64,000 nt of DNA from a virus: IMG/VR virus record IMGVR_UViG_3300019926_000016. One strand, 5' to 3'. This document shows positions 197-16,636 of this stretch, piece after piece (the stretch's first letter is position 1; each line of letters opens with the position of its first letter). The position numbers were made by a program, and so were the translations under genes. The notes below the pieces were generated by a model. That model was not told the origin of the DNA. It saw nothing but the letters and a program-made list of their open reading frames with translations, and made no database searches.

Positions 197-526
197 ATGA
201 GTGATAAAATCCGAAGTATCAGCGTGAGTCTTGAAGACGGTGAACGGCAGAGTGCAGGAAAAGTAACCAAGAAGTTCTTCAATTCAGTGGACGATGCTTT
301 CAGGAAACACGTAGTAGAAGTGACTCAAGTGACCGGCGAAAACCCGGAAGCGGCCCCGGCTCATCTGTCTTTCAAAACAGATGCCGACCCTGAAGCGATG
401 ACCATAGAGGTTGAATGGATGGCCGCAACCCATTTCAACCACGTTTCTGCAACAGTCGTTCCGACTGACGAAGAGATGCAAGAAGCTATGGAAACCATCG
501 AAGAAGACATCGAAGAAAGCATCTAA
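197..526 (+). CDS. hypothetical acidic protein
   Basis: 109-aa ORF, D/E-rich, directly after the upstream stop. Confidence 0.7.
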   Translation: MSDKIRSISVSLEDGERQSAGKVTKKFFNSVDDAFRKHVVEVTQVTGENPEAAPAHLSFKTDADPEAMTIEVEWMAATHFNHVSATVVPTDEEMQEAMETIEEDIEESI

Positions 527-558
527 GGCTCAACAGGTGGGTTTCGATTCTTCGGAAA

Positions 559-592
559 CCATCGAAGGTGAATTTATAACAACCTTCGGTGG
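559..592 (+). promoter_or_regulatory. TATA box (TTTATAA 573-579) inside an 11-bp inverted repeat
   Basis: CCATCGAAGGT (559-569) / ACCTTCGGTGG (582-592) flank TTTATAA, about 90 nt upstream of ATG 669. Confidence 0.55.
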
Positions 593-668
593 CCGGACCC
601 GATTCTCCCTTCGGGAAACAACAGGGAGCGTGAGGTTACTCTACGAAGTGAGTAACATATTTCGACCA

Positions 669-1772
669 ATGAGTTTCGACTTCGCAGTGAACGACAGCAG
701 TACCGAGACGGTCAACAACGACAGCGACGACGTTTCCGAAGAGATTTCAACGGAGTTCGAGAACAACGAGGTGGCTGACCTGTACCTCAGTATCGGTGAC
801 TGGAAGGGAACGGTCGGTAAAATCCTCAAAGCTCTGGAAATGGAACAGCTAAAGATTTACAGCGACGACACTCTCGAAGATGTCGGTCGTCTTCTCGGTG
901 AGTACACCGAAGCCCATCCGATGCAGAAGTTGCATATGGTGGCTTCGTTGGCAAAGGCCACCGCCGGAAAGATGCAACGAGAAAACGACCACGGCATCGG
1001 TCTTCAGAAGGGCAAAGCTCCCGAAGAACACTTCGAGGAGAGTGTCAGCTACGCTCTGTTCTTCTCCGACCTTCCAGCTATCGAATGGGAGAGTCTTGAC
1101 GGTGGAGAGCGTGAAAACCTCGAAGAGATGGGCATCGACCCGTCGTCTCTCGGCTTCGACACGACCTTCGGTGGTCCGAAGCTGTTGGTGGTCGGCGGTG
1201 AACGGCTCCCCATCGTTGTCGAAGAGGGCAACGAAGTGATGGAAGCGGTGAACATCCTTCAGGGTCTTCCGGGGGAACCTTCGGCCTACACTGAAGACGG
1301 CTTCCGAGAGTCGTCTGACGGTTCGGTGTTCGGTGAAAGTGAGGATTCAACCGAGACTGAAAGCACCGAGAACGGTGGCGAAGTGAACCTCGCGGCGAAC
1401 CCCGAACGAGTCAAAGAGGTGAACGTCGGTGACATCAAAGCTGAAGTGACCGGCATCGACTCGCTTCGGACTATCCAAACGATGCTTCGAGTCGAAAGTG
1501 ACTCGGAGAGTCCTCGGTCGTCGGCCATCAAGCGACTCAAAGAGCGTCGGAACGCCCTTCAGAACGGCAGTCAGAATGAAGGGTCCGACGCTGAAGGCGA
1601 CGAAGAGGCAGATGACGACAAAGTGGCTGAAGCCGTCGATAGTGTCGAAGAGGACACCGAAGAGCAGGAACGAGAGCTTGACGAAGGCGACAAAGCTCTG
1701 ATGGCGGCAATGCTGAACAACGGTGATGTTGAGAGTCGAGAAGAAGCGAAGGAGGAAGTGCTGAAGCTGTAG
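669..1772 (+). CDS. hypothetical acidic protein with a small helical C-terminal domain
   Basis: Start moved from 411 to ATG 669 (MSFDFAV) because the upstream part overlaps the previous gene and promoter; the VNVGDIKAEV...RSSAIKRLKERR segment resembles the C-terminus of ORF 30588..30896. Confidence 0.75.
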   Translation: MSFDFAVNDSSTETVNNDSDDVSEEISTEFENNEVADLYLSIGDWKGTVGKILKALEMEQLKIYSDDTLEDVGRLLGEYTEAHPMQKLHMVASLAKATAGKMQRENDHGIGLQKGKAPEEHFEESVSYALFFSDLPAIEWESLDGGERENLEEMGIDPSSLGFDTTFGGPKLLVVGGERLPIVVEEGNEVMEAVNILQGLPGEPSAYTEDGFRESSDGSVFGESEDSTETESTENGGEVNLAANPERVKEVNVGDIKAEVTGIDSLRTIQTMLRVESDSESPRSSAIKRLKERRNALQNGSQNEGSDAEGDEEADDDKVAEAVDSVEEDTEEQERELDEGDKALMAAMLNNGDVESREEAKEEVLKL

Positions 1773-1914
1773 GCTGAAAGACTCGGAACGACGAAGTGAA
1801 GTCTTAGCCCAATTGAAGGCTTTGGCCTTCCACGGTTCACGACCGAATTGGGAACTTTAGGGCAAAGCGTCAGGGACGCTCTGCCTTCGGCCTGATTCCC
1901 TGAGAGTGATTGCA

Positions 1915-2121
1915 ATGACTGGCTTCGATACCAGCGACGGCTACCGAATCGAACCGCTTGATGACCGAGACAGCGACGACCCTGACTTCACCATCGACCC
2001 GATGCTTTCGTGTTCTAACACGGACTTCGGCGGTGAAGACCCTGCTTCGGACCCGGAACCCCGTGGGGAAGTCGCTCCGGCTTGGAACAGTGAAGACCGT
2101 CTCGGTGAGGTTGAAGGATGA
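1915..2121 (+). CDS. hypothetical protein
   Basis: D/E/P-rich ORF from ATG 1915; ATGA overlap with the next ORF. Confidence 0.5.
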   Translation: MTGFDTSDGYRIEPLDDRDSDDPDFTIDPMLSCSNTDFGGEDPASDPEPRGEVAPAWNSEDRLGEVEG

Positions 2122-2267
2122 CGATAGACCCCGACCCGTTGGCAGAACGAAGTTCTGACGGTCTGACTCGGGATGACCTAAAGATGGACAAGTACGACGA
2201 CAGCAAGCAGAGTCTCGAAGAGAACGCTGACATCGACCCGAAACTGAAGGAGAAGTTCGACCTGTGA
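2118..2267 (+). CDS. small hypothetical protein (49 aa, not in the ORF track)
   Basis: MTIDPDPLAERSSDGL...KEKFDL; 4-nt overlaps at both ends. Confidence 0.5.
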   Translation: MTIDPDPLAERSSDGLTRDDLKMDKYDDSKQSLEENADIDPKLKEKFDL

Positions 2268-2467
2268 ACGACAAAAACGAAGCAACGTGGCAGTATGAAG
2301 TCGATTCGGTGCAACGACAGGGAACGACTGGAGCGACAAAGGCTCGGCGTCACGGTGAAGTCAGTTGTCCAGAACCGACTGACGGCAACGAACCGAACAA
2401 TCATCACGGTGATAAGGAAAACGAACAACCGGCTCACGACAAAGACGGGATTCCAACAGGAATCTGA

Positions 2468-3025
2468 GTGACGATGGGCTTCGATTTCGCAACGTCTGAC
2501 AATAGCGGAAAAGACGACAGTGAACCGGACTTCGGTGATGAAATGGGACACCGAAAGTTCCGTGAAGCCTGTGAAGAGTATGCTGAATGGGCTGTCGAAG
2601 AGTACGATGAACTGTCTGAGGTAGACCTGAAGCCGGTCAGAGTCGAAGTAAGTGACGACCTGAAACGAACGGCAGGCAAAGCAGGGAAACGGAGCGACGA
2701 CTACTTCATCCGGTTCGCTACTGGAGCCTACGAAGAGTGGGGTTGGAGCGACCAGATGAAGTCAACTATCCGCCACGAACTGATACACATTCACCAGTAT
2801 CAGGAAACGGGAAGCGGCGACCACGGAATCGGATTCAGACGAATCGCTAACAAGATAGGCTGTGAAGTCCATTGTCAGAAGTTCACTGACTACAACTTCC
2901 AGTTCTACTGTACCGAATGTGGCGAAGAGTCGGGTGGTCGGTATCGGGAGTGCAAAGCAACAAGAAATCCCGAAAAGTATCGGTCAAAGTGCTGTAAAGC
3001 ACCACTACGAGTTGAAGAACAATGA
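2468..3025 (+). CDS. SprT-like zinc metalloprotease
   Basis: HELIH (HExxH), downstream DHGIGF, C-terminal CTECG...CCK zinc ribbon. Confidence 0.85.
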   Translation: MTMGFDFATSDNSGKDDSEPDFGDEMGHRKFREACEEYAEWAVEEYDELSEVDLKPVRVEVSDDLKRTAGKAGKRSDDYFIRFATGAYEEWGWSDQMKSTIRHELIHIHQYQETGSGDHGIGFRRIANKIGCEVHCQKFTDYNFQFYCTECGEESGGRYRECKATRNPEKYRSKCCKAPLRVEEQ

Positions 3026-3157
3026 CAACACTCAATCCGAAAGAAGACGGCGAGGAAGCGTTAGATGAATTGATTTTCGAACGAGACAAAAAGAAGTCGA
3101 AGTACGACGAGCAGTTAGCGGAAGACGAAGACGACGGCAACAACTGAGGCAAATCCT

Positions 3158-3448
3158 ATGATAGATGCAGAACCCTTCGATAGCGACAGCGATAGCGATA
3201 GTATTGGAACGTATAAATCACTTTCTCTCGGCCTTATCGGTGCGATGAAGGATGGAATGGTCGATTCCTTCTCGTACCGTGGTCTTCGAGTGAACCGAAG
3301 CGGTGATTCGATGTGGGTCACTGAAGATAACGAAGCCGCGATGAATGACGAACCACTCGGCGGTCATCTGTATCTCCCTTCGGCTACTGTTCGGACTGCT
3401 TTCGAGTGGTTAGAAACAAAAGCCGACTACTACGAGGTGGCTGAATGA
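3158..3448 (+). CDS. hypothetical protein
   Basis: 96-aa acidic ORF, ATGA-coupled to the next ORF. Confidence 0.65.
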   Translation: MIDAEPFDSDSDSDSIGTYKSLSLGLIGAMKDGMVDSFSYRGLRVNRSGDSMWVTEDNEAAMNDEPLGGHLYLPSATVRTAFEWLETKADYYEVAE

Positions 3449-3708
3449 AACTCACTATCGGAGAGAAGTGGCATCGTGAAGAGACGGAATACATCGAAGA
3501 GATGACCATCGAAGGGTTGGCATCAATCGAGGACCAACTACCGAACGGCGAAGTCGTTCTTCCGAAAAACGGCGATAGCAAAGTGAAAGTTCGTATCATC
3601 AACAGTGTGACGGCGAATTTCTTCACGACCGAAGTAAAACTTCGGGCTATCGTTAATAATTGGGAACGAGGTGAAGCCCCAATAGAGATGCCGGGAATGT
3701 TGGTGTAG
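3445..3708 (+). CDS. hypothetical protein
   Basis: 87-aa ORF coupled to the previous ORF. Confidence 0.65.
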   Translation: MKLTIGEKWHREETEYIEEMTIEGLASIEDQLPNGEVVLPKNGDSKVKVRIINSVTANFFTTEVKLRAIVNNWERGEAPIEMPGMLV

Positions 3709-3709
3709 G

Positions 3710-3720
3710 AAAGACTTAAG
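3710..3720 (+). promoter_or_regulatory. repeated AAAGACTTAA motif (probable BRE-TATA)
   Basis: Same or near-identical 10-mer at 6041, 10259, 11295, 19619 and 36465; always intergenic, usually just after a stop codon. Confidence 0.6.
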
Positions 3721-3740
3721 ACAAACCGCTTCAATTCTTT

Positions 3741-3810
3741 GGGCGAAAGAAGGGAACAACCCTTCTCGGTTGAGAGGTAGCCGCCTCGACCCTGACGATG
3801 CCCAAGGCTT
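3741..3810 (+). ncRNA. type II hammerhead ribozyme HH1
   Basis: GGGC-GAAA-GAAGGG/CCCTTC-TC-GGTTGAG/CTCGACC-CTGACGA-T-GCCC; loop AGCC pairs with 3' GGCT; predicted cut after C3767. Confidence 0.9.
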
Positions 3811-3834
3811 CACGGGATGCAACCTTCCAAAACT

Positions 3835-3975
3835 ATGACGGAACACACCTGCCGCCGACCCGATTGCGAGGAAACGTTCACCAACCAGTTCGACTACGAC
3901 ATTCACCTTCTGAACAGTCACGAAATGCCGAGTGATGAAATCGACAATTTCCCTCGGCCTCCTGAAAGCCGGTAA
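3835..3975 (+). CDS. small C2H2 zinc-finger protein (46 aa, not in the ORF track)
   Basis: MTEHTCRRPDCEETFTNQFDYDIHLLNSH...; C-x4-C-x12-H-x4-H; lies between HH1 and HH2. Confidence 0.75.
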   Translation: MTEHTCRRPDCEETFTNQFDYDIHLLNSHEMPSDEIDNFPRPPESR

Positions 3976-4000
3976 CTCCGAGTTACCGTAGCCTTCTAAC

Positions 4001-4067
4001 GGGCGAAAGGGGAGAAATCCCCTCGGTTTCGAGATAGCCGCCGAAACCCTGACGATGCCCACGGCTT
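4001..4067 (+). ncRNA. type II hammerhead ribozyme HH2
   Basis: GGGC-GAAA-GGGGA/TCCCC-TC-GGTTTCG/CGAAACC-CTGACGA-T-GCCC-A-CGGCT; predicted cut after C4024. Confidence 0.9.
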
Positions 4068-4101
4068 CGCAGAACGGGACCAACCTTCCGAGGTAAGACC
4101 A

Positions 4102-4647
4102 ATGGCAGAAACTACGAGCGATAACGGCGATGCAACGACAGACTTCGACCCGTTCGACGGGTTTAACGTAGTAGATGAACTTCCGCTTCAGCAGTTCGTG
4201 GACTTCGGCTTCGATTCGTTCGGAGAGTACATCCACATCGTTCCCGACCCGGAACGGCGACAACTTCGGGTCTACCGTTCGGTGTCGGATGCAACCGAAG
4301 AAAACGAGCGGATTTCAACGGTGATAGATGACGTGAAAATCACCTATCACTACGACAACTACCGCAACGATAGGCCGGAAGTCAACCACTTCTACCTGAC
4401 TGGAACGGAAGCGATGACGTTCCTTTCATTTCTGGACCTTCTCGGTTCGGGTCGTGAAGGACGGCTCACCTTCGAGTGGTGGGAAGAGTCAGGGATGCCG
4501 ATGATGGAAGACGAAAAGACGGACATCGAGATTCTGACTTTCACGTTCGACAAGCCGAACGGCGTGAACCGAACAGTATCGATAGACAATCCGTGGCAAT
4601 CTCCGAAGGCTCACCGGATGGCGAATCTGGATGGTGAAGTGCTATGA
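4102..4647 (+). CDS. hypothetical protein
   Basis: 181-aa acidic ORF, ATG 77 nt after the HH2 cut site. Confidence 0.75.
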   Translation: MAETTSDNGDATTDFDPFDGFNVVDELPLQQFVDFGFDSFGEYIHIVPDPERRQLRVYRSVSDATEENERISTVIDDVKITYHYDNYRNDRPEVNHFYLTGTEAMTFLSFLDLLGSGREGRLTFEWWEESGMPMMEDEKTDIEILTFTFDKPNGVNRTVSIDNPWQSPKAHRMANLDGEVL

Positions 4648-4877
4648 CAGAGATTCCCGAGGAAATCCGGTCGTTCGAGGAATTGCAGTCGGTCGATAGC
4701 ATTGCTGAAGTGCAAGACAGTTACGCCGATTACGTCATCATTCTCGATTCGTCTCGAACGAACGAGGTTCGGGTTCACTACCTCGAAAACTTCCGTAACA
4801 AATGGGAATGGGTCGATTCGGCAACTAACGACCGTCACGACAACGGTTACTTGCAGATTCAACGGAGAGACAACTAA
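4644..4877 (+). CDS. hypothetical protein
   Basis: 77 aa, coupled at both ends. Confidence 0.65.
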   Translation: MTEIPEEIRSFEELQSVDSIAEVQDSYADYVIILDSSRTNEVRVHYLENFRNKWEWVDSATNDRHDNGYLQIQRRDN

Positions 4878-5302
4878 TGTCAGTCATCAAAGAGCGGCTT
4901 GACGAAACGGACGCATCGCTTCACGAAATCGAAGAGTGTCTGGATGAAATCGAACGGCTTCAGTGTCGGTATCCAGATGCCTTCGGTATCGCGGCAGTCT
5001 TCGACAACGACGAACTTCGGGAACAGATAAGTGAAGAGCGATTCACTGGAAGTTACCCCGGAGCGTGGCATATCTACGATGGAAACACGAGACACGACTA
5101 TTACTGGCATCGTCATCAACCGGGACACGACGACTGGATGTCAATTTGGGCAGACGAGAAAAGATGGGGTGAATGGTGGATTGAAATCTACCCATATATT
5201 GATAGTGAGAGTCCAACACTCAGGACTTCACACGACACCAAAACAGAAGCGGCGATTCGGGTGGCTAAACTGATGCAGAAATACAGTGAGGATGAACAAT
5301 GA
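4877..5302 (+). CDS. hypothetical protein (Trp-rich)
   Basis: 141 aa, TAATG overlap. Confidence 0.7.
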   Translation: MSVIKERLDETDASLHEIEECLDEIERLQCRYPDAFGIAAVFDNDELREQISEERFTGSYPGAWHIYDGNTRHDYYWHRHQPGHDDWMSIWADEKRWGEWWIEIYPYIDSESPTLRTSHDTKTEAAIRVAKLMQKYSEDEQ

Positions 5303-5467
5303 CCGGACCATACGATTTCATCGACCCCGACCGACCCGAGAGGAAACGCGCCGTTCAACGAACTAACGAAGCCACTGAAACCGAGAAGGGTGGGATGAAC
5401 ACCGACAGGATGCGGTTCCGATAGGCCGAACTGTCGATGAAGAAAACGAAGGACTGTTGAACCGACT

Positions 5468-6037
5468 TTGGAGTGCGATTGGAGGATTCTTCAAATGAAC
5501 CAAGCAACAGCAAACGTTCAGACGACGGGTAGCATCGTGACTGACAATGGACGAAGTTTCCCCGATGATGTCTACGAAGAGACTTCACGGGCCACCGGCA
5601 ATCAGCAATGGGTCGCTGACCACTGGGCTGATGGGAAACTTCCGACTCATTCCACCAGTGGTGATGCAGTGGTTCTCTACACCGGGACTGGAAACTTCAA
5701 AGGATTCCAGTATCCTGACGGGCGAGGCAAACTGAAGCACTACAATCACATTCAAGCAATCAGAACCCGTTCAGGGCTGATTATCGGTGATAGCAGTTGC
5801 TATGCAAGAGGGATGGCACACTGTAACTATCCAACAGATGAAGACTACCGTATCAACCTGACCGAACTGAAGAAACGACTTCGAGGCGAACCAGAAGAAA
5901 TCTACGACATAACGGCAATCAGCGGCCTCGATGACGACACAATAACATTCGAGAGTGGTCGTGTCTATTCGGTTGAAGACGACGAATGGTCGGACCCTGA
6001 TGCCGACACGTCAGAACCGAACGCTCTTGGATTGTAG
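5468..6037 (+). CDS. hypothetical protein
   Basis: 189-aa ORF; true start may be the downstream ATG (MNQATAN). Confidence 0.7.
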   Translation: MECDWRILQMNQATANVQTTGSIVTDNGRSFPDDVYEETSRATGNQQWVADHWADGKLPTHSTSGDAVVLYTGTGNFKGFQYPDGRGKLKHYNHIQAIRTRSGLIIGDSSCYARGMAHCNYPTDEDYRINLTELKKRLRGEPEEIYDITAISGLDDDTITFESGRVYSVEDDEWSDPDADTSEPNALGL

Positions 6038-6076
6038 ACCAAAGACTTAACCCGAAAGGTTCCAAGTCTTTCAACA

Positions 6077-6144
6077 GGGCGAAACGGGGACCGGCCCCGT
6101 CGAGAAGGAGGTAGCCGCCCTTCTCCTGATGATGCCCACGGCTT
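6077..6144 (+). ncRNA. type II hammerhead ribozyme HH3
   Basis: GGGC-GAAA-CGGGG/CCCCG-TC-GAGAAGG/CCTTCTC-CTGATGA-T-GCCC-A-CGGCT; GUC triplet, predicted cut after C6101. Confidence 0.92.
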
Positions 6145-6166
6145 CACGGGACGCAACCTTCCGAGA

Positions 6167-6349
6167 ATGACCGAATCCGAACCAATCGCTTACGTCTATC
6201 AGGTTGTTCCAGACAATCCTGATTGGGCAAAGCAAAGACCGGCTTTTGAGCCTCATTAGAGTGTCACGTTTGAACACCCCGATGAACGGTTCGATGGTAT
6301 AGATGGCGTGAAGGCAATCGACACAACTCCCCTCTACGACAATGAGTGA
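6167..6349 (+). pseudogene. 60-codon ORF interrupted by an in-frame TAG (6257-6259)
   Basis: MTESEPIAYVYQ...FEPH*SVTFEHPDERFDG...YDNE*; the second half has no start codon and ends overlapping ATG 6342. Confidence 0.45.
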
Positions 6350-9110
6350 CAACGCACTTCAGACGACGGACGAAGCGAACGATGAACAACCTGTGGTCAA
6401 AGGGACGGGCGGCGGCGAAGTCAAGAAAATCGACACAGTGGACGAAGACCACCCGCTTGTCGAAGAGACGGGCGATTCGGCACTGAAGACCGAGACTGAA
6501 AGCGGTGCAGGTGAGTTTCTGTCTGACTTCATCTACGAACACGACTCGGCTTGGGTTCGGGAATGGCTCCAGAACCACGAAACGGCTTGTGTTCGAGCGG
6601 CGAAGTACCTCATCAAAGCGAGTGACGAATACAACGACGGCTGGTTGACTCATTCGATGTGGGTCGAAGAGGAAACCGGCGAGACGGTCATCGACTACGA
6701 TGAACCGCAAGCGATTCTCGCTGAGTACGATGGTGAGGCGAAGACGCTTCGTGAGATAGAAGTGAATCGTCCCATCGGTGAAGTCCTCGAAGCGGCGCGG
6801 AATCTCGGCTACGACCCAACAATCGTTTGGGACGTGTATCTCGATGAACGGAAGATAGTGACCGAAGACAACGGCATTGGGATGACTCCGTATGAGTTTG
6901 ACCAAGCCTTCAACACTATCTTCTCTTCTGGTGCGGCCCTCGATAGTGAAACCGGCGGGATGTTCGGTGTCGGTTCGGAGTCCGTGGCACTGGTTCACGG
7001 GAAGAACGGCGGGGCTGAAATCGTAACATCAAGTCGTCGGACAACGAGTGACGGTAATGGGTACGAAGGCTTCAAGGCCTACTCCTATCTCGGTGGAGCG
7101 AACGCACTTCCCGGCGACGTTCCCGAGTCGTTCCGTGGAACGAAGTTCAACATCCCGGTTCAGAAAGACTTCAACCTACACAAACTTCAGGAGTGGGTCG
7201 AAGAGTATTCCGAGAAACTTCGTGTTCCGCTTCTGTACCGGGAACACGACGCTGGAAACACGCCGGTCGAAGAAGAGTACGAAGCCACAGTCTTCACTGA
7301 AGACTACGGTGAACCGCCGGTTGTCATCGAACGACCCGGTGAATTCAGTGTCGTTGCTGGACCTGATGTGTATAATGACAGTTTCCGTTCCGATGATAAT
7401 GACACGTTCCTCGTCTCGATGCCGATTGACCGGAACACTCGCGCTTCAATCTACACGTTTTGGGACGTTGTGATTCAGATTCACGACGAACAGGGCCTTA
7501 TCGTCGCCGGTCCTCACCGTGGAGAGTACCGCGAAGACGTTGGGGACATTCAGGATAACGATGTGGTGCTACCGGAACCGACCGGGGACCGTGACCGTCT
7601 TCAGCGGGATTCGGAATCGAAGGACTTCTTCTACTACGTTCAGGACGAAGTTAAGTCCCGAGAGTTGGAGAAGGTCAGCGATGTTGCGGAGCGGATGAAA
7701 GAGGCAGACCATCCCGGTGATGTAATCCGTGACAACAAGAACGACTGGACGTTGTTCAAGAAGATGGTCAAGTATCACGGTCATCACCGCATCTTCGAGA
7801 GTCGGGCTAAACTGAAGTCATTCGTCAACGACCGCGACGAGTTTCCCGACTTCGACAAGCAGAAAATCCACGAGATTTACTCCCTCTTCGAGAAAGTGAG
7901 CCACTGCTACAAAGGAGCCGGACGTTCCTCGAAGAAGAGCAGTCGGTCGGAGAAGATGTTGGGTGAAATCCTCGCCAAAAAGAACCCCGATACCGTCTAT
8001 ATGGCGGCTTCGACTGGTGGGAATTTCACGCAACGGTTCAAAGTCATCGAGAACACTTACGACAGTCCTGAAGTCATCGTCATTGGTAGTGCCGCAAAGT
8101 ACGACAAGTATCAGAAGCAATACGGGTTCCGTATTCTGAAGAACGTCCCGTTGACTGACGGCGACGAAGACGACCACGACTACGATGTTCCCGATGATAT
8201 TCACGACCGGAACGTGAAGACATCGACGGACAACACCGGGAAGGCCGAGGAAGTCAAAGAGCGCGTTCTAAAGATTCGGAACGACGGAACTAACTCTTCC
8301 ATCGACTTCCGGCCAACGATAGAAGATGCTCAGGAACGACTCGAAAATGGGGGGACATTCGGAAACCACAAAGAGAAATTGATTGTGTTTCCCCGGAGTG
8401 CAGATGAAAACATCAGTGACCACTATGACTTGGCCGACTATGTTGCCATAGTTTCGGTCAGTTCCAAAGAGTACGACGAGTTATCGGGCTACGATAACGT
8501 CTTCACCTTCGAGGAATACAAAGAGTGGTCCCGGTCGGCTCTCATTGCCACCGAAGACGGTGCAATGACACCGGAAGAGTTGGTCGAAGATGACCGAATG
8601 GTGGTGATGGCATATCGTGACAAGCACGGAAATCGAGATGTTCTGAAGTTGCTCTCCGACGACTATGAGGAACTTCGGAACCGCTACCTCGATGACATTC
8701 GTGACCAGTACGGCTACTATTACGACGACGATTACGATGTTGGTCGTGGTAAATTGCCGCCGGAGAGTGAACGACCTGATACGCTCTTTGCGGTGACTGA
8801 TTCGGTCGTTCTCAATCGGGCTGAATGGGCATTTGACCATATGGCTTTCACGCCTAAGTCGATGGTCTGTCTGAAACTCAACCGGCGTCGATACGGGTAT
8901 AATAACCCGGCTGAGTGGAAGACGCTCAACAAAACGACGAAGAAGTACCGACTGATGGTAGACACGCCGAAGTGGGACAACAGTAGCGACATCTACGAAA
9001 TATTCCCTTCGGACCACAGTAGTCGAAAAGCACAGATGTACCTCGGTTTCCACGACCGAGGCGTTGACCCGACTGATTTCGAGCCTGAAGAACTTCGTGA
9101 CCTCATCTGA
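6342..9110 (+). CDS. large GHKL (Hsp90/MORC/rIIA-like) ATPase
   Basis: Bergerat-fold motifs REWLQN, EDNGIGMT, GGMFGVGSES and RGTKFNI, followed by about 600 aa of unrecognised sequence. Confidence 0.8.
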   Translation: MSDNALQTTDEANDEQPVVKGTGGGEVKKIDTVDEDHPLVEETGDSALKTETESGAGEFLSDFIYEHDSAWVREWLQNHETACVRAAKYLIKASDEYNDGWLTHSMWVEEETGETVIDYDEPQAILAEYDGEAKTLREIEVNRPIGEVLEAARNLGYDPTIVWDVYLDERKIVTEDNGIGMTPYEFDQAFNTIFSSGAALDSETGGMFGVGSESVALVHGKNGGAEIVTSSRRTTSDGNGYEGFKAYSYLGGANALPGDVPESFRGTKFNIPVQKDFNLHKLQEWVEEYSEKLRVPLLYREHDAGNTPVEEEYEATVFTEDYGEPPVVIERPGEFSVVAGPDVYNDSFRSDDNDTFLVSMPIDRNTRASIYTFWDVVIQIHDEQGLIVAGPHRGEYREDVGDIQDNDVVLPEPTGDRDRLQRDSESKDFFYYVQDEVKSRELEKVSDVAERMKEADHPGDVIRDNKNDWTLFKKMVKYHGHHRIFESRAKLKSFVNDRDEFPDFDKQKIHEIYSLFEKVSHCYKGAGRSSKKSSRSEKMLGEILAKKNPDTVYMAASTGGNFTQRFKVIENTYDSPEVIVIGSAAKYDKYQKQYGFRILKNVPLTDGDEDDHDYDVPDDIHDRNVKTSTDNTGKAEEVKERVLKIRNDGTNSSIDFRPTIEDAQERLENGGTFGNHKEKLIVFPRSADENISDHYDLADYVAIVSVSSKEYDELSGYDNVFTFEEYKEWSRSALIATEDGAMTPEELVEDDRMVVMAYRDKHGNRDVLKLLSDDYEELRNRYLDDIRDQYGYYYDDDYDVGRGKLPPESERPDTLFAVTDSVVLNRAEWAFDHMAFTPKSMVCLKLNRRRYGYNNPAEWKTLNKTTKKYRLMVDTPKWDNSSDIYEIFPSDHSSRKAQMYLGFHDRGVDPTDFEPEELRDLI

Positions 9111-9306
9111 ACCAGTCACTCCGGCTTACAACAGCAAGCCGGACCCTGACGAACCGTGGCGGTTCGTTTGCCCTCATTGTGAGGGACAGGTTCAACGAGG
9201 AAAGAACAACCTCAAATGGAGGTGTTACGATTGCCGTGAATCGTTCGAGAAAGACAATCTGAAAGACCTGAAACGCGATGAAGATAGACCCACCGCAAAC
9301 CGTTGA
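9064..9306 (+). CDS. zinc-ribbon protein (start uncertain)
   Basis: CPHC...CYDC motifs; only a TTG start in frame. Confidence 0.5.
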   Translation: MTRLISSLKNFVTSSEPVTPAYNSKPDPDEPWRFVCPHCEGQVQRGKNNLKWRCYDCRESFEKDNLKDLKRDEDRPTANR

Positions 9307-9378
9307 CCGGACTCGACCGTTCGAGAAGATAGACAGCGACGAATACCACTCGCTGTTCGACTACGAGGAAGACTGACA

Positions 9379-10080
9379 ATGGAAGTCCTTGACGACAACG
9401 AGGTTAACTACCTCGTTCTGACGGACGATGGAAGTACAGTGACGAAGACCAAATCATCGAACCTGAACCAACTGCTCTTCGACCACAACCTCTACGGGTT
9501 GCTCGAAGAAGGCAGTGAAATATGGACGTGCAGTAACCCGGAAACAGCAGAACCGACAGTAACAATCATTCCCGACGATGATGCCGAGTGTTACACTGTT
9601 CGGGTTGGCAATACGATAGACCTGACTCTCGGAGCGCATCACAAGACCGATTTGGTTGATGCACTTGCTGAAGTGTATCAGGACCACGACGGCGACAGCG
9701 TGGTTCCTCTTCTGGACCTTATCGAGTCTATCCGTGAAGATATGGTCCGGGTTGAAGCCCTGAAGCCGTTCCTCGGGATTCTATCCGAGAAGGTCGAAGA
9801 AAGAGATGACGGCTGGTTCATCAACGGCCACCTGCTTCTGACCTACGAAGGTGACTTCCATCATCCTGCTACTGAGAGTCGGGAACGGTCGGGGCAATCA
9901 GTTATCGGTGTCGGGTCAAACGTCGGAGCGTACAGTCTCAATATCGACCCGCCGACGAGTGAGATTCGGCGTGAGGTAGAGTATGACGGCGAAACCTTCC
10001 GATTGACTGACTCGGAAGTGGACTTCATAGCCCGAACGTTGTGGGCTATCGAGAACACGCCCGACAGGAGGGATGACTAA
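9379..10080 (+). CDS. hypothetical protein
   Basis: 233-aa acidic ORF. Confidence 0.75.
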   Translation: MEVLDDNEVNYLVLTDDGSTVTKTKSSNLNQLLFDHNLYGLLEEGSEIWTCSNPETAEPTVTIIPDDDAECYTVRVGNTIDLTLGAHHKTDLVDALAEVYQDHDGDSVVPLLDLIESIREDMVRVEALKPFLGILSEKVEERDDGWFINGHLLLTYEGDFHHPATESRERSGQSVIGVGSNVGAYSLNIDPPTSEIRREVEYDGETFRLTDSEVDFIARTLWAIENTPDRRDD

Positions 10081-10256
10081 TGGCGTATTTCTGCACCAGA
10101 TGTGAGGCAGAAGAACATCCGAATATGCCCAAAGAGCGTGTTCGGAACGAATTTGAGCAAGATAGGAACCTGTCGGTGACAACCTATTGTGCCACTTGCT
10201 CATCCAATACGGTCCACATCTCGGACAGCGCGAAACGGCTATCGGAAATGACGTAA
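10080..10256 (+). CDS. small CxxC zinc-finger protein (58 aa, not in the ORF track)
   Basis: MAYFCTRCE...YCATCSS...; TAATG overlap. Confidence 0.65.
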   Translation: MAYFCTRCEAEEHPNMPKERVRNEFEQDRNLSVTTYCATCSSNTVHISDSAKRLSEMT

Positions 10257-10289
10257 CATAAGACTTAACCCTTCGGGGCTTGAGTCTTA

Positions 10290-10329
10290 GGATGAAAGGG
10301 CGGCGGGCAGTTCGATTCTGCCTCATCCC
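10290..10329 (+). ncRNA. mini-tRNA-like element (acceptor stem plus T-arm only)
   Basis: GGATGA/TCATCC stacked on GGCAG-TTCGATT-CTGCC; 10-nt linker in place of the D and anticodon arms; AAGACTTAA about 30 nt upstream. Confidence 0.6.
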
Positions 10330-10361
10330 GTTGCGCCAATCCCCGGCGTTCGGTTCAAATA

Positions 10362-11291
10362 GTGGGACACAACCGGAAAAAGATGACCTACTACGTAGTA
10401 GTTGACGACGAAACAAGCGAAAAGGTAGACGGGACCGAACGGTATGACCAAGAGTTCCGTGCAACGATAGATGCGTTCAAGTGGGAAGCCAAAAACCGTG
10501 GTTCCTTCTCAGTTGAAGAGCGCGAAGAGACAACCGAAGACGACTCCGAACATACAATGAGTGACTACGACTTCATCGGCAACGACGACGCACAGGACGA
10601 CAACCAGCAGACCACCGACGACTTCGACACCATCGGCAATATGTGGACCCTCGGGGACCACAGCACGGCGTCGGAGGGAGAACGGAACTACCTCACAGAG
10701 TCCATCCAGAACACGATGGAGGCTCTGGACGAAGACGTTGACGACGAACTAATGGGCGTTCTCCGAGACGCACAGGGCCTCGTCAGTGAGACGAGCATCA
10801 GTCGGTTCGAGTGTCCGGTGGAAGACTGTGGCCTCGGTCACAGCCACCCTGACCACAAGCACGACATTCGGTCGGGCTTCAACGTCGAAGAGGACTTCGT
10901 GGAGCAGATGAAGTTCTGTCCGTACTGTCACTGTGGCGTCAACGAACTGGCGATGCTGGTTCGGTTCTTCCCCTACATCAACCGTCCGGTGTTCACCGAC
11001 CAGCACGACTTTGAGGGCGTTCTGGAAGTCAACCCGGACGTTCTGGAAGCAGTCTATCGGACCTACAACGACGATGGGGTGAGCCTCAGTGTCGCCGCTG
11101 GTCGGGTCGCTTCTCGGCGCGGTCTGGACGAAGCAGAAGCAATCCCGCTCGGTGTTCGTGAAGACATTCAGGCGTTCTTCAATCGTCGTGACGCGATTCA
11201 GAACGCGGCTAACTCTGCTCCTATCGCTCAGGAGACTCGGGGTGTCATCGAGGCCGACCGAGAGGCACTTCAGGAGATGGTTTCCGAGTAG
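10362..11291 (+). CDS. hypothetical protein with Cys/His metal-binding motifs
   Basis: CPVEDCGLGHSHPDH and CPYCHC; start may be a downstream ATG. Confidence 0.75.
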   Translation: MGHNRKKMTYYVVVDDETSEKVDGTERYDQEFRATIDAFKWEAKNRGSFSVEEREETTEDDSEHTMSDYDFIGNDDAQDDNQQTTDDFDTIGNMWTLGDHSTASEGERNYLTESIQNTMEALDEDVDDELMGVLRDAQGLVSETSISRFECPVEDCGLGHSHPDHKHDIRSGFNVEEDFVEQMKFCPYCHCGVNELAMLVRFFPYINRPVFTDQHDFEGVLEVNPDVLEAVYRTYNDDGVSLSVAAGRVASRRGLDEAEAIPLGVREDIQAFFNRRDAIQNAANSAPIAQETRGVIEADREALQEMVSE

Positions 11292-11331
11292 GTCAAAGAC
11301 TCAACTCTGGAAGGTTGGTCTTAGAAGCACT

Positions 11332-11405
11332 GGGCGAAACGTCGGGTTGGTCCCCCGGCGTTGGGAACGAGATGGTCGCCGTTCCCCTGATGATGCCCAC
11401 GACCA
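11332..11405 (+). ncRNA. type II hammerhead ribozyme HH4
   Basis: GGGC-GAAA-CGTCGGG/CCCGGCG-TT-GGGAACG/CGTTCCC-CTGATGA-T-GCCC; pseudoknot changed to TGGTCG/CGACCA (compensatory); predicted cut after T11362. Confidence 0.92.
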
Positions 11406-11434
11406 GACTGGTTGGGAACCGATGTAAACTATCA

Positions 11435-11572
11435 ATGAAATCGACAACCGAAGCATCTGAAAAGGTTGGAACGTCGCACGGAGAGCGAATCCGTGACAAC
11501 TACGACACGAAAAATCTTTCCGCGATAATGGATAGATTTTACAGCGCAGTTTCGTGGAGGGATGACGAATGA
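11435..11572 (+). CDS. small hypothetical protein (45 aa)
   Basis: MKSTTEASEK...WRDDE; ATG 72 nt after the HH4 cut site; ATGA-coupled to the next ORF. Confidence 0.5.
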   Translation: MKSTTEASEKVGTSHGERIRDNYDTKNLSAIMDRFYSAVSWRDDE

Positions 11573-11826
11573 CTGTCGTTAGTCATCTCGATATATTCTA
11601 CGACACTCGGTTTTCTCTTGCAGTCACAAATTCAGGCCCGTCGAACAACCCCAACACTGGTCTGACAGAGGTTCCGAAAGCCGCAATTATTCACTTCGAG
11701 GACGGTCCCGAGAGGTACGTTGACTCTATGGACTTCGATGCCCCGAACGGGAAAGGCTACGAAACGGCTCAATTCCTGATTGGACGGGCAATGATGGACC
11801 CCGATGCGGTGGTGGAACCAACTTGA
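11569..11826 (+). CDS. hypothetical protein
   Basis: 85 aa, coupled. Confidence 0.6.
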   Translation: MTVVSHLDIFYDTRFSLAVTNSGPSNNPNTGLTEVPKAAIIHFEDGPERYVDSMDFDAPNGKGYETAQFLIGRAMMDPDAVVEPT

Positions 11827-12047
11827 ATCAACAAGACCGCGAGTTACTTCGTTCGGTGTACGACCAGCAATGGGCCAGCACCAGAGAAATCGAGCGGTCT
11901 ACTCGATTCAGTTACGATTCAGTGACGGTCCATCTTCGACAACTCTTCGAGACAGGTCATTTGGACCGATGTAAAGTCGGTAGTCACTACGAATACCGGA
12001 TTGCGCTTCCGGTCCTTCCAGCGGTAATCAGCGACATTGCAGGATGA
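11823..12047 (+). CDS. winged-helix DNA-binding protein
   Basis: STREIERSTRFSYDSVTVHLRQLFETGHLDRCKVGSHYEY pattern. Confidence 0.7.
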   Translation: MNQQDRELLRSVYDQQWASTREIERSTRFSYDSVTVHLRQLFETGHLDRCKVGSHYEYRIALPVLPAVISDIAG

Positions 12048-12559
12048 CAGACATAGCAACAGGTGATTTCGTAGCAGAACACCTGAACGACGGTAAGGTT
12101 CGAGACGAACAGATTCAGCCAAACGGTGTAGACCTGACCATAGAAGAGATGTATCGAACTTCCGGTCAGGCTCACTTCTTCGATGATGGATACGAAAAAC
12201 CGGAGAGAACACCGATAACGCCGCGAAAGGCAATCCACGAGGACGAGACAAAAGTATTCTCAATTGTTTCGGGGCAGTATCCTGTGGTCTATGCCGAGAA
12301 GGTGGAGATACCGGACGGGTATGTGGGACGAGTTTACCCCCGTTCCCGGTTGATGCGTTCGGGTCTTCATCTCACATCGGCACTGTGGGACCAAGGCTAC
12401 GAAGGAATCGGTGAAGGTCTGCTTCAGGTTCCGTCGTCAGTAGAGAGAGTTACGATTCCGACCGATATGGCCGTCGCTCAGATGGTCTTCATATCGGCAG
12501 AAGAGGCTGAAGACTACGAAGGAAATCACAATAAAGAACGGCTAACGGTGACTGATTAA
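12044..12559 (+). CDS. dut: trimeric dUTPase / dCTP deaminase family protein
   Basis: QIQPNGVDL, PRSRLMRSG, WDQGYEG. Confidence 0.8.
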   Translation: MTDIATGDFVAEHLNDGKVRDEQIQPNGVDLTIEEMYRTSGQAHFFDDGYEKPERTPITPRKAIHEDETKVFSIVSGQYPVVYAEKVEIPDGYVGRVYPRSRLMRSGLHLTSALWDQGYEGIGEGLLQVPSSVERVTIPTDMAVAQMVFISAEEAEDYEGNHNKERLTVTD

Positions 12560-12560
12560 A

Positions 12561-12899
12561 ATGAGTGACAACAGCGACAAAGATTCACAAGCATTGGGCG
12601 AAATGAGCAACGACGAGTTGGCTAATCTCGTTCGGAACACGGCGGCTTTCCGAGCGGCGGCGGCCTGTGCCGCGTTCTCAGACGAAGCACAAGAACTTCG
12701 AGAGAACGACTCACTGGCCTTCGACCGACTGGTGAAAGAAACACACGCCAAGCAGGGAACTGGCGTCTCTTCGAAAGACACCACTCGGGGAATTATTCAC
12801 AAATTCATCGACGTGGTAGAAGAACACGCAGAACTTGCCGAAGAGCCTGCTGATGCCGCCGAGAACGCGGCGACGGAGGTGGTTACTGAGGATGACTGA
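12561..12899 (+). CDS. hypothetical protein
   Basis: 112-aa ORF. Confidence 0.65.
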   Translation: MSDNSDKDSQALGEMSNDELANLVRNTAAFRAAAACAAFSDEAQELRENDSLAFDRLVKETHAKQGTGVSSKDTTRGIIHKFIDVVEEHAELAEEPADAAENAATEVVTEDD

Positions 12900-13215
12900 C
12901 CTCCGGCTTCGGATGAGTGGTGAGATGGGAGAATCGCTACGGTTCATAGAAACAGAAACAGAAGACGGTCAAACCATCGAAGTCGGGGAATGGACTGAAG
13001 AAGACGGTGACTGGTTCCTCGAACTTGACTTCCTCGACCTTCTCGAAATTGCAGTTGAAGAAACAGAGAAGGTCTACATTGTCAAAGAAGAGGCCACGTG
13101 GTCATATGAAGTCTTCTTCGACAAAGAGAAAGCCCGAGAAGAAAACAGTAAGGGTCACTGGAAAGAACGCGCTCTCCACGTCGCAGACTTCATTCCGGCG
13201 ATAGAAGATGGATAA
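12892..13215 (+). CDS. hypothetical protein
   Basis: Start at ATG 12892 (MTDLRL), acidic. Confidence 0.65.
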   Translation: MTDLRLRMSGEMGESLRFIETETEDGQTIEVGEWTEEDGDWFLELDFLDLLEIAVEETEKVYIVKEEATWSYEVFFDKEKAREENSKGHWKERALHVADFIPAIEDG

Positions 13216-13223
13216 AGACTGAC

Positions 13224-13290
13224 GGGCGAAACGGGATTCTTCCCGTTGTCGGTGAGGTAGCCGCCACCGGCCTGACGATGCCCACGGCTT
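13224..13290 (+). ncRNA. type II hammerhead ribozyme HH5
   Basis: GGGC-GAAA-CGGGA/TCCCG-TT-GTCGGTG/CACCGGC-CTGACGA-T-GCCC-A-CGGCT; predicted cut after T13247. Confidence 0.9.
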
Positions 13291-13340
13291 GATGGGACCA
13301 ACCAAAACACCCAACGGACTCCAGAGGAAATCAGTGCATA

Positions 13341-13622
13341 ATGTACGAATCAGGCTTTCAGACCGAAGTATCGGCGGCTATCATCCAACACGAAGAGGAA
13401 GAAGTCAAAGTCTCAATCAGTGATAGTGAGAACATCATCTTCGTAGAAATCGGAAGAAAAGACGCCGCATACACGGCAGACGAAGCGAGAGAGTTAGCAC
13501 AGAATATCGAACACAACGCGAGGCAACGGTGGGACGAGATTCCTTCCGACCTTATCGAGTACATCAATGAACTTGCTGACGTTCTTGATGGAAAAAAGGA
13601 TTCAACAGAAGTCGAACGATGA
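13341..13622 (+). CDS. hypothetical protein
   Basis: 93 aa, first gene after HH5. Confidence 0.7.
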   Translation: MYESGFQTEVSAAIIQHEEEEVKVSISDSENIIFVEIGRKDAAYTADEARELAQNIEHNARQRWDEIPSDLIEYINELADVLDGKKDSTEVER

Positions 13623-14029
13623 CACAGTTACCCACACCGGACCCGGAAGTTGCACAGGTTTACAAGGAAGACCGAAGCGGAGAACTGTATCAAATCATCT
13701 ACGTGGATGCTCAGATAGTTCTCCTTCGAGGTGAACGCGCTCGACGTGACGGTGAAAACATCCACCGTCTCGAAATGCGAAGCCAATTCAACGAACAGGT
13801 TAAGTCAAATCGACTCGAACTTCAACCTGATTCCGACATTGACTTGTTGTCCCTGACAGGGAAAGCGTGGTCTGAAGTCGATTACATCGGAGAAAAGACG
13901 GCTGAAAACCTCCACGATGAAGGCTTCAGCACTATCGTTGATGTTCGACAGGCAAAAGACGAGGAACTGCTTTCCGTTGACGGACTCGGGAAGTCGGGGC
14001 TAAAGAATCTCCGTTCTTTTGCCCAGTAA
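13619..14029 (+). CDS. helix-hairpin-helix domain protein
   Basis: VDYIGEKTAENL...LLSVDGLGKSG tandem HhH. Confidence 0.8.
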   Translation: MTQLPTPDPEVAQVYKEDRSGELYQIIYVDAQIVLLRGERARRDGENIHRLEMRSQFNEQVKSNRLELQPDSDIDLLSLTGKAWSEVDYIGEKTAENLHDEGFSTIVDVRQAKDEELLSVDGLGKSGLKNLRSFAQ

Positions 14030-14055
14030 AGACTCGATTCAGGAAAGATAAATCA

Positions 14056-14160
14056 ATGAACCAGTGCGATAGTTGCGGTTTCACTGACGTTCGACGGAGT
14101 GGTACAGCGTGTCCGAAATGCGAAGATGGCATCATTCGGAGGAACAATGGTCGGAGGTAA
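14056..14160 (+). CDS. CxxC-CPxC micro zinc-finger protein (34 aa)
   Basis: MNQCDSCGF...TACPKCEDG. Confidence 0.55.
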   Translation: MNQCDSCGFTDVRRSGTACPKCEDGIIRRNNGRR

Positions 14161-14587
14161 CTACCCGCCGGGGACGAGTCGTCGTGACTTGATTCGTGGT
14201 GGCATCATCGAACCGCACCGTCACGAGTGCGAGTTTCTTATGGATGATGACCGAGCAAACCCCATCATCGAGGATGGTGCGGCAATCTTCCACACAGAGT
14301 GTCGGTATGTAGAAGGAGAATACGGTCAGGGGTACTCTTGTGATGAAACTCGCAGTTATCGGTTCGAGTATTCGACTCTCGAAACGAGTGAAGGTGAAGA
14401 GATAGAACTTCATCCTATCACAGAGTGGGAAAAGAACGACGACGATATTGCTGAGAAGGTCGCCAGCATCGAAGAAGCCTATCACAACTTCTCCGACGAA
14501 AGAACAGAAATAGACGTAGACCCCGACCCTGAAGCCGGGGTTGTCGCTATCGAATATAACGGCTATACCTTGAGGTACGAACCTTGA
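14147..14587 (+). CDS. hypothetical protein
   Basis: Probable start ATG 14147 (MVGGNYPPG). Confidence 0.65.
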   Translation: MVGGNYPPGTSRRDLIRGGIIEPHRHECEFLMDDDRANPIIEDGAAIFHTECRYVEGEYGQGYSCDETRSYRFEYSTLETSEGEEIELHPITEWEKNDDDIAEKVASIEEAYHNFSDERTEIDVDPDPEAGVVAIEYNGYTLRYEP

Positions 14588-16374
14588 TTGCAAATCAGAA
14601 ACAGACAGTGACGAATCTCGAAGAGTACGACGAAACACCAGCAGGCTTCAAAGAGTATCTTCACGACCTCGGTGAAGAGATGTTCCCGTTCCCCGGCTTC
14701 CGTGAGTATCAGGACGAGATACTGTACGAGACGCTGGATGCGTTCTTCATCGACGGTTACTGGAACGTAGTTATCGAGGGTCCGACCGGCATCGGAAAGT
14801 CGCCGTTCAACGTAGCTGTCGGTCGGGTTATCTCGATTCTCGCTTCCAGAAAACGGAAGATTCAGGACTACTTTGGTATCAGTCTCCGTGGCTTGGATAA
14901 AGGCAAGTCATTCTACACAACCCCACAGAAGTCTCTTCGGAATCAGTTGGCCGACGACGATGACCTTCGAGATTACATCACGATGTTGAAGTCACGTCGT
15001 GATTACATCTGCGGAGAAACGGGAACCAACTGTGCGGAATGTATGGTCAGAGCATCACAAGACGAGTCTTGCCGAACGGTCGCTGACTGCACCTACTGGG
15101 GACAAAAAGAAGCGGCAATGAGAAGCGACATAGCGGCAATTACGTTCGCTATGCTCATTGTGGACAACTACGTTCCCGTAGAAACTGAAGACGGTGAACA
15201 GATTTCCTTCGATGACCGCGACCTCGTTGTGGTTGACGAAGGACACAACAACGAACGCCAATCATCCAGTCTCTTTGCCGGGTTCACGCTTTCTCCGTGG
15301 AGTCTTCCCGAAGAAGTCTACGACGATGCCGGAGAACAGGTTGATTGGGAAGACGACCGCTTCGAGGATGTTGAAGACATTCTCCACGAGATTCTTCAAC
15401 GAGCAGAAAATTTCGTGGATATGTACGAAAACATCGAACAAAAACAGTCCCAAGTCGAGAAGTGCGAAGATGCAATCCGCAAGATACGGTACTGTATCAG
15501 GACGGAAGAAGAAGGACGCGGTTGGGTCGTCAACATTGACGAGGTAACGATTCCCGGTACTCGCGGTCAAACGACGAAGAGCATCCAAGTGAAGCCGGTT
15601 CGAGTCGATGATTTCTTGCGGGATTTCGTCTGGTCCCGTGGTCAGCGAAGACTCATAACGTCAGCGACGATTCCTTACCGGGCTGATGTTGACAAATGGG
15701 GCGACCGAATCGGCCTCGATGATGAAGTAAAGTTCATCTCGAAGCGAACGCCGTTCCCCGAAGAACATCGGCTGATTCATCTGAACACGATGGTCGGAGA
15801 AATGGACAGTAACCACGAAGACGATAATTGGGCCGATGCAATGGCTCAAATACGGGAGATTCAGTCTCACCACGAAGGAGAAAACGGGCTGATTCACTCT
15901 GTATCGTATCCTCGGGCCGAGCGTGTTGCTGATAGTCTCGGTCGGAGCAACGTCATCTTTGATGAGAAAGAAAAGGACACGGACGCACTCATCACGAAGT
16001 GGCAGAACAGTGATAAGGACATAATGGTGTCTCCGACGATGACTGAAGGCGTTGACCTACACGGCGACCGTTGCCGTTGGCAGGTTCTTCTGAAGGCTCC
16101 GTTCGCATATATGGGAGACAGCAGAGTGTCCTACCTCACGTTAGAAAAACACGAGTGGGACTGGTACTACGAAGAGGCCGCAATCGACATCATCCAGTCG
16201 GTCGGTCGGGCTGTTCGTGGTCCTGAACCGGAAGAAGCGGCATCGTTCTACATCATAGACGAGAAGTTCGAGGACGTGATGTACCGAACGAATCCACCTG
16301 AATACTTCGTAGAGGCTGTCAGGGATGACCCTCCCGAACATTGGGAAAACCCTGAAGCCGCTCCGTGGAGATAA
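14584..16374 (+). CDS. SF2 DinG/XPD(Rad3)-family helicase with Fe-S cysteines
   Basis: EGPTGIGKS, four-Cys cluster, VVVDEGH, TEGVDL, QSVGRAVR. Confidence 0.9.
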   Translation: MIANQKQTVTNLEEYDETPAGFKEYLHDLGEEMFPFPGFREYQDEILYETLDAFFIDGYWNVVIEGPTGIGKSPFNVAVGRVISILASRKRKIQDYFGISLRGLDKGKSFYTTPQKSLRNQLADDDDLRDYITMLKSRRDYICGETGTNCAECMVRASQDESCRTVADCTYWGQKEAAMRSDIAAITFAMLIVDNYVPVETEDGEQISFDDRDLVVVDEGHNNERQSSSLFAGFTLSPWSLPEEVYDDAGEQVDWEDDRFEDVEDILHEILQRAENFVDMYENIEQKQSQVEKCEDAIRKIRYCIRTEEEGRGWVVNIDEVTIPGTRGQTTKSIQVKPVRVDDFLRDFVWSRGQRRLITSATIPYRADVDKWGDRIGLDDEVKFISKRTPFPEEHRLIHLNTMVGEMDSNHEDDNWADAMAQIREIQSHHEGENGLIHSVSYPRAERVADSLGRSNVIFDEKEKDTDALITKWQNSDKDIMVSPTMTEGVDLHGDRCRWQVLLKAPFAYMGDSRVSYLTLEKHEWDWYYEEAAIDIIQSVGRAVRGPEPEEAASFYIIDEKFEDVMYRTNPPEYFVEAVRDDPPEHWENPEAAPWR

Positions 16375-16381
16375 ATTAACA

Positions 16382-16636
16382 ATGACAGACCTACAATCCA
16401 TCAAAGCACAAGCGAGTCGAATCGGCGCGATAATCCATTGCCCGGAGTGCAGTCACGAAGAAGACTTCTCGGCGTTCCTCGAACGGGACACCCGCATTGA
16501 CGAAGAAGAAAAAGAAGTAGATTTCGGTTGTCCCGAGTGTGGCAACGATACTGTTAGCCTCGGGAAGCGGCGGAGGGGGAGCCTGAACATCGTCGTCAAT
16601 GGCCTCGAAGAGATGGAACAACTGGCAGATGAGTAA
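16382..16636 (+). CDS. zinc-ribbon protein
   Basis: CPEC...CPECG. Confidence 0.65.
   Translation: MTDLQSIKAQASRIGAIIHCPECSHEEDFSAFLERDTRIDEEEKEVDFGCPECGNDTVSLGKRRRGSLNIVVNGLEEMEQLADE

Follow-up and report, generated by a model that had tools for sequence, protein, structure and literature searches.

We have analyzed a 64,000-nucleotide stretch of viral DNA from the IMG/VR record IMGVR_UViG_3300019926_000016 (the window), in which five intergenic elements, HH1 to HH5, have the features of pseudoknotted type II hammerhead ribozymes. The window covers most of the genome of a tailed haloarchaeal virus. Genes for the portal, major capsid protein, tail sheath, tape measure and baseplate lie on the minus strand between 47 and 63 kb, and genes for a family B DNA polymerase and an RtcB RNA ligase are present as well. 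The Rad3-like helicase (14584-16374) is 57-58% identical to the helicases of HF1, HF2 and of further Haloferacalesviruses, and the capsid protein is 58-59% identical to that of HSTV-2 and other Mincapviruses; judged by the capsid, the nearest isolates are the Mincapviruses HSTV-2, HRTV-7, HCTV-6 and HRTV-11. From these 57-59% protein identities to HF1/HF2 and HSTV-2 we read the virus as a new, HF1/HF2-like lineage of the Hafunaviridae. Megablast of an 11-kb region of the window against GenBank phages returned zero matches. From about 400 to 16,400 the genes are on the plus strand and overlap or abut inside blocks, and all five ribozymes lie on this gene strand, in gaps of ~125-140 nt that separate the blocks. 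A preceding reading of the DNA from its letters and open reading frames (ORFs), here called the sequence-only reading, had described the array as punctuating an "early operon". The plus-strand blocks with ribozymes in their gaps are as it described them, whereas the timing comes from synteny with HF2, by which the left arm carrying the ribozymes is probably early.

The elements were located by pattern and by covariance model. A loose pattern (GCGAAA, 30-60 nt, CTGANGA) occurs at exactly five sites in the window (3741, 4001, 6077, 11332 and 13224), all on the plus strand, against 0.69 expected by chance; for a stricter hammerhead pattern the chance expectation is 0.00. A covariance model trained on HH3 and three copies from one related virus scored the four window copies outside its training set at 67-76 bits and, on both strands of the 64 kb, found nothing beyond the five. 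Every copy has the same layout: GGGC, GAA, A15.1-stem III-U16.1, H17, a 7-bp stem I with a 10-nt loop, CUGAYGA, a single U, GCCC, an A and the tail. Minimum-free-energy (MFE) folding returned the type II three-way junction in all five cases, with stems I and III capped and stem II open. The catalytic core (C3-U4-G5-A6-N7-G8-A9 as CUGAYGA, and G12-A13-A14 as GAA) is exact in the five copies and in all 11 when those of relatives are added, and the A15.1-U16.1 pair is likewise invariant (AU in 11). Stem II is 4 bp long and does not vary among the window copies; stem III does. The G10.1-C11.1 pair is present (as a G-U wobble in two relatives), but all copies have a single additional U between A9 and G10.1, which Rfam alignments place as an insertion after CUGAUGA. 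Position H17 is C, C, C, U and U in HH1 to HH5, which gives cleavage triplets of CUC, CUC, GUC, GUU and GUU. Between loop I and the 3' tail, HH1 forms 4 bp, HH4 6 bp and the other three copies 5 bp each. The likely start codons are found 67, 77, 65, 72 and 93 nt downstream of the predicted cut sites, and cutting at all five would free segments of 257, 2077, 5261 and 1885 nt. A parse of each copy reproduced the layout and positions given by the sequence-only reading, together with identical cut sites and triplets, the extra U and the distance of 65-93 nt from cut to start codon.

HH1 occupies 3741-3810, with stem II at 3741-3744/3800-3803, stem III at 3748-3766 and predicted cleavage at 3767/3768 (CUC); stem I (3768-3774/3785-3791) encloses loop I (3775-3784) and is followed by the core CUGACGA (3792-3798), the extra U (3799) and the 4-bp pseudoknot tail (3806-3809). 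This copy, outside the training set, scores 76.2 bits. HH2 (4001-4067; 75.8 bits) has a stem III closed by a GAAA tetraloop, a cut site at 4024/4025 (CUC), stem I at 4025-4031/4042-4048, the core at 4049-4055, the extra U at 4056, the 3' strand of stem II at 4057-4060 and the pseudoknot tail at 4062-4066. For HH3 (6077-6143) the corresponding positions are 6101/6102 (GUC) for cleavage, 6102-6108/6119-6125 for stem I, 6126-6132 for the core, 6133 for the extra U and 6139-6143 for the tail. HH4 (11332-11405; 67.7 bits) has a 7-bp stem III and would be cleaved at 11362/11363 (GUU), with stem I at 11363-11369/11380-11386, the core at 11387-11393 and the extra U at 11394; both sides of its 6-bp pseudoknot are changed, the loop reading UGGUCG and the tail CGACCA (11400-11405). 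HH5 (13224-13289; 76.2 bits) has its cut site at 13247/13248 (GUU), stem I at 13248-13254/13265-13271, the core at 13272-13278, the extra U at 13279 and the tail at 13285-13289.

Two IMG/VR contigs of ~71 kb, G001 and G002, both from one sample, were picked out by a pattern scan as having the same subclass; a strict loop-plus-core pattern gave 0 matches in the IMG/VR collection searched. With the filters of the model search turned off, G002, which is complete with terminal repeats, has four copies and G001 has two intact copies and one decayed, compared with five in the window. The decayed copy (12657-12725, minus strand) occupies the HH4-orthologous site; it retains the pseudoknot and both stem I and stem III but has lost stem II, and its core reads AUGAAGA. 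BLAST comparison of the left arms places copies at orthologous junctions in all three genomes; at one of these, HH1, a small gene and HH2 of the window correspond to a single ribozyme in G002. Between the window and G002 the ribozyme regions are 76-84% identical, and most adjacent genes ~66-70%. In the metagenome collection the subclass is rare: a scan yielded 33 pattern matches, only two of which score with the model (42 and 27 bits). On the four Mincapvirus isolates the model returned only noise (E>0.1), which indicates that they lack these ribozymes.

Two neighbouring small ORFs were seen in these comparisons. A 30-codon ORF directly follows HH3 (6167-6259); it has a close nucleotide match after the orthologous G001 ribozyme and is absent from G002, where a 922-aa GHKL-ATPase-like gene directly follows the ribozyme. 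Between HH1 and HH2, within the 257-nt segment, the interval 3835-3975 holds one small ORF and, just before HH2, a GGTAACTC/GAGTTACC hairpin.

The 11 intact copies of the window and its two relatives were aligned for covariation; the alignment was fitted to the covariance model, which favours structure, whereas the parse of each copy does not depend on it. Across these copies pairing holds in 98.8% of cells, and both sides are changed in 12 of the 22 pairs; none of 500 shuffles matched the observed percentage paired or the covariation score, and in slid controls 40-55% of cells pair. All cells of stems I and III are paired, and five pairs in each are changed on both sides, in agreement with the claim that these stems differ from copy to copy and yet pair. 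Stem II is also 100% paired and nearly invariant. In the pseudoknot 94.5% of cells pair and two of its five pairs covary (CG/UA/AU and AU/GC/GU), which, with the six pairs of HH4, bears out the compensatory change noticed earlier there. A permissive Rfam scan of the window reported Hammerhead_II (RF02276) for HH3 (36.2 bits), HH5 (31.9) and HH4 (28.6), all below the gathering score of 37 bits, which is a curation cut-off and not a biochemical criterion, and reported no other ribozyme family. Core, covariation, these near-threshold matches and conservation at orthologous sites all support assignment of the five copies to the pseudoknotted type II hammerheads.

Perreault et al. 2011 (PMC3088659) described natural type II hammerheads in which loop I and the 3' tail form a pseudoknot. 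The window copies have the topology and core of these and of RF02276, and likewise a short, GC-paired stem II and at least 4 bp in the pseudoknot. They differ from RF02276 in the extra U after A9, the 4-bp stem II and the fixed 7-bp stem I with its 10-nt loop. An extra nucleotide between A9 and G10.1 is a tolerated natural variation, and a U at this place made trans-cleavage by a viroid hammerhead 3-4 fold faster (PMC3705267, PMC4209133). Hammerheads of viroids and eukaryotic retroelements have a one-nucleotide insertion at the same core position, but these are of type III or type I, and the native viroid residue is A where the window has U. In prophages, clusters of hammerheads flank genes or short gene blocks and cleave in vitro and in E. 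coli, and it was proposed that long phage transcripts are thereby cut into gene-length mRNAs (PMC3088659). The window likewise has co-oriented intergenic hammerheads in a phage gene string (compare Perreault 2011, Figure 3). In contrast to the prophage clusters, its virus infects Archaea, its five copies are of one subclass, three of them stand behind a promoter-like motif at a fixed distance, and one gap has a tRNA-like minihelix in the equivalent slot.

The closest known case is HHphage, the variant hammerhead found 13 nt before the helicase gene of HF1/HF2, where the 5' end of an HF2 transcript was mapped within 3 nt of the cut (PMC3088659). HHphage, which the HF2 record AF222060.2 annotates at 10292-10359, occurs in the same virus family and genome arm, is of type II and has a UGGU/ACCA pseudoknot like that of HH4. 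It is, however, a single copy before the helicase, with an insertion (2a, 2b) beside C3 and no extra U, whereas the window copies have no C3 insertion; pattern and covariance model found no hammerhead before the window helicase at 14584. The subclass model scores HHphage at only 17-23 bits. Because position, C3 insertion and extra U all differ and the score is so low, the five copies are not orthologues of HHphage, which is present in divergent form before the helicase of Haloferacalesviruses. The ribozyme class, its clustering in phages and the single hammerhead of HF1/HF2 were thus already described in 2011; what appears to be new is the five-copy array in an archaeal virus, the turnover of copy number among relatives and the linkage to the promoter-like motif.

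This motif, AAAGACT(T/C)AA, precedes HH1, HH3, HH4 and most of their orthologues, with its TTAA or TCAA starting 25-32 nt upstream of the ribozyme, and is often followed by an inverted partner. Directly upstream of HH1 a predicted promoter-like element (3710-3740, plus strand as are the others) consists of the motif AAAGACTTAA (3710-3719) and a T-rich second arm, with TTAA starting 25 nt before the ribozyme. Upstream of HH3 (6041-6076) the motif AAAGACTTAA (6041-6050) and its inverted partner AAGTCTTT form a hairpin of -9.5 kcal/mol (z -3.4), TTAA starting 30 nt before; upstream of HH4 (11295-11331) the motif is AAAGACTCAA (11295-11304), the partner GGTCTT, and TCAA starts 31 nt before. HH5 is abutted by a partial copy, AAAGACTGA (13214-13222), at a different spacing. 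In another gap (10259-10329) the motif AAGACTTAA lies in a strong palindrome, and a tRNA-like acceptor/T-arm minihelix (10290-10329) comes 25 nt beyond TTAA. The minihelix has a TTCGATT loop and occupies the slot held by hammerheads in the other gaps; by BLAST the 10259-10329 stretch matches two places in G002. A further occurrence of the motif is 27 nt ahead of the GTG with which the ORF at 23229 starts. The motif resembles both the alpha motif of the class I intergenic repeats of HF2 and the 14-nt box of T-4384, a mapped HF2 promoter, and in the HF2 repeats the TATA box begins at -26 (PMC8707807). The spacing of 25-32 nt, and of 27 nt at 23229, would fit a TATA box beginning at -26 as in those repeats. 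A start 26 nt after the motif would fall between 5 nt before and 2 nt inside the ribozymes, and because the first nucleotide of the ribozyme is then only a few bases away, trimming of locally initiated transcripts may be a further, or the main, task of these ribozymes.

The reading that we prefer, with a probability of roughly 0.6, is that the five copies are cis-acting type II hammerheads that define RNA ends at the boundaries of expression units, in the manner of insulators. They lie on the coding strand, between the tightly packed gene blocks of the left arm, in gaps that are its only sizeable stretches of non-coding DNA. Once transcribed, each would fold into stems I to III, be locked by the pairing of loop I with the 3' tail, and cleave itself after H17. 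The upstream RNA would then terminate in the hairpin of stem III, bearing a 2',3'-cyclic phosphate, and the downstream mRNA would begin with a 5'-OH, the stem I hairpin and a conserved leader of 65-93 nt. Each downstream block would in this way receive one 5' end, whether its RNA came from read-through or from a start at the motif before HH1, HH3 or HH4, and the ribozymes would serve as RNA-level insulators between units. Cleavage in vivo, the transcripts that it would yield, promoter activity of the motif and any effect on stability or translation are predictions from the observed motif, fold, covariation, conservation and position. The proposal of the sequence-only reading, that a polycistronic early transcript is cut into separate mRNAs, is plausible in the same terms. 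An analogy, as distinct from a homology, is offered by the RiboJ-type synthetic insulators of Lou et al. 2012, in which a hammerhead between promoter and coding region reportedly leaves one defined 5'-OH leader irrespective of what precedes it; the likeness is in design logic only, RiboJ being engineered, bacterial and derived from a satellite-RNA hammerhead.

Several observations weigh against the insulator reading. At the gathering threshold Rfam gave zero matches in the whole window, and HH1 and HH2 went unreported even at E<=10 on a 401-nt stretch; because none of the five reaches the gathering score, routine annotation would miss them all. The Hammerhead_II search that the sequence-only reading had named as a check gave three sub-threshold matches and missed two copies. 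Hammerhead variants from salterns can require very high Mg2+ (PMC3088659), and activity is for this reason not to be assumed. HH2 and HH5 have no motif at the 25-32 nt spacing, and the motif is not a strong TATA consensus. With the 33-nt spacing of HF2 T-4384 the start would fall inside the 5' edge of the ribozyme and give an uncleavable RNA, which makes the evidence for a promoter circumstantial.

Conditional gene control, in which cleavage tuned by Mg2+/K+ or by alternative pairings would set the stability or translation of the downstream RNA according to host state and would not be constitutive, was proposed for the Mg2+-dependent saltern and halovirus hammerheads (PMC3088659). A sequence that could serve it lies in the leaders: GGGA(C) occurs 1-8 nt after the pseudoknot tail in 10 of the 11 copies (the remaining one, G2c, reads GGGCC), the regions in the window being 3811-3834, 4068-4100, 6144-6166, 11406-11420 and 13290-13300. 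In HH1 to HH3 and two G002 copies GGGA(C) is followed by CAACCUUCC(G/A)A ahead of the start codon. GGGA(C) could form an alternative fold with the 3' strand of stem II or with C2.1-C3-U4-G5, possibly after cleavage, but there is no covariation behind this pairing, since both partners are invariant. A GGGAC hairpin in the cleaved product was also considered and rejected, as MFE folds differ between copies and no covariation was seen. Moreover, the window cores are without the C3 insertion of HHphage and HHmeta, and their sole deviation, the U after A9, is of a kind reported to speed cleavage (PMC3705267). We therefore regard conditional control as unlikely.

The 5'-OH and 2',3'-cyclic-phosphate pieces might instead be circularised or joined by a viral or host RtcB, the 257-nt segment between HH1 and HH2 being an example. 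The window encodes RtcB at 42749-44218, and RtcB substrates have exactly such ends; since all copies have an identical stem II, the ends of an excised segment could in principle rebuild a composite hammerhead, but type II hammerheads typically have a short, conserved stem II in any case (Rfam consensus). RtcB is also present in G002 (77% identity) and in Haloferacalesviruses and absent from three hammerhead-free Mincapviruses, a distribution with too few independent lineages for a correlation and one that G001, with two intact hammerheads and no RtcB, does not follow. The ligase is found in hundreds of unrelated phages, and circular or spliced products of clustered hammerheads have been sought and none found (PMC3088659), so that we consider cutting and rejoining quite improbable. 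An exchange of gene cassettes at the DNA level, for which the repeated 70-nt elements and the motif would act as patches of homology with ribozyme activity secondary, would suit the differences in copy number (5, 4, and 2 with one decayed) and the variable genes right after the ribozymes: HH1, a small gene and HH2 against one ribozyme in G002, and the small gene after HH3 that the window and G001 have and G002 has not. Yet stems I and III differ in almost every copy and always pair while the core stays invariant, which argues for selection on RNA and not on DNA identity, and the contiguous identity between copies is too small for efficient homologous exchange; this explanation is very improbable indeed. 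The insulator reading could also be extended to a standard module of promoter motif plus hammerhead or tRNA-like minihelix, by which every early mRNA, of local or read-through origin, would exchange its original 5' end for a structured 5'-OH leader, and the released pieces, with their identical stem II, could be circularised or rejoined by the viral RtcB. This extension we hold to be unlikely; if true, an archaeal virus would have a natural system of ribozyme insulators linked to RNA ligation.

Gene strings punctuated by ribozymes, described in bacterial prophages, are extended by this array to a virus of Archaea. Its five natural variants of one ribozyme, together with the relatives that have four copies, or two and one decayed, make a small tractable system. 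It could address the role of hammerheads in haloarchaeal viral mRNAs, be it definition of ends, insulation from upstream transcription, stability or ligation by RtcB, and the fixed spacing to a promoter-like motif akin to mapped HF2 promoters makes this role testable with existing Haloferax and Halorubrum reporter systems.

Two further occurrences of type II hammerheads were seen in the course of these searches. In Halorubrum virus VOLN27B a second HHphage-like match (65062-65129; 19.2 bits) lies directly downstream of the helicase gene, so that its helicase may have a ribozyme on each side; no second match of this kind was seen in the first 23 kb of HF2. Arrays of three to four type II hammerheads with an extra U are also present in IMG/VR contigs of other phages (L003:11123-11936 and L009:7661-8261). 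The 3' tail in these arrays complements the core sequence, with covariation at position 7 (CUGAU-AUCAG, CUGAC-GUCAG), a pairing that may form a core-sequestering helix.

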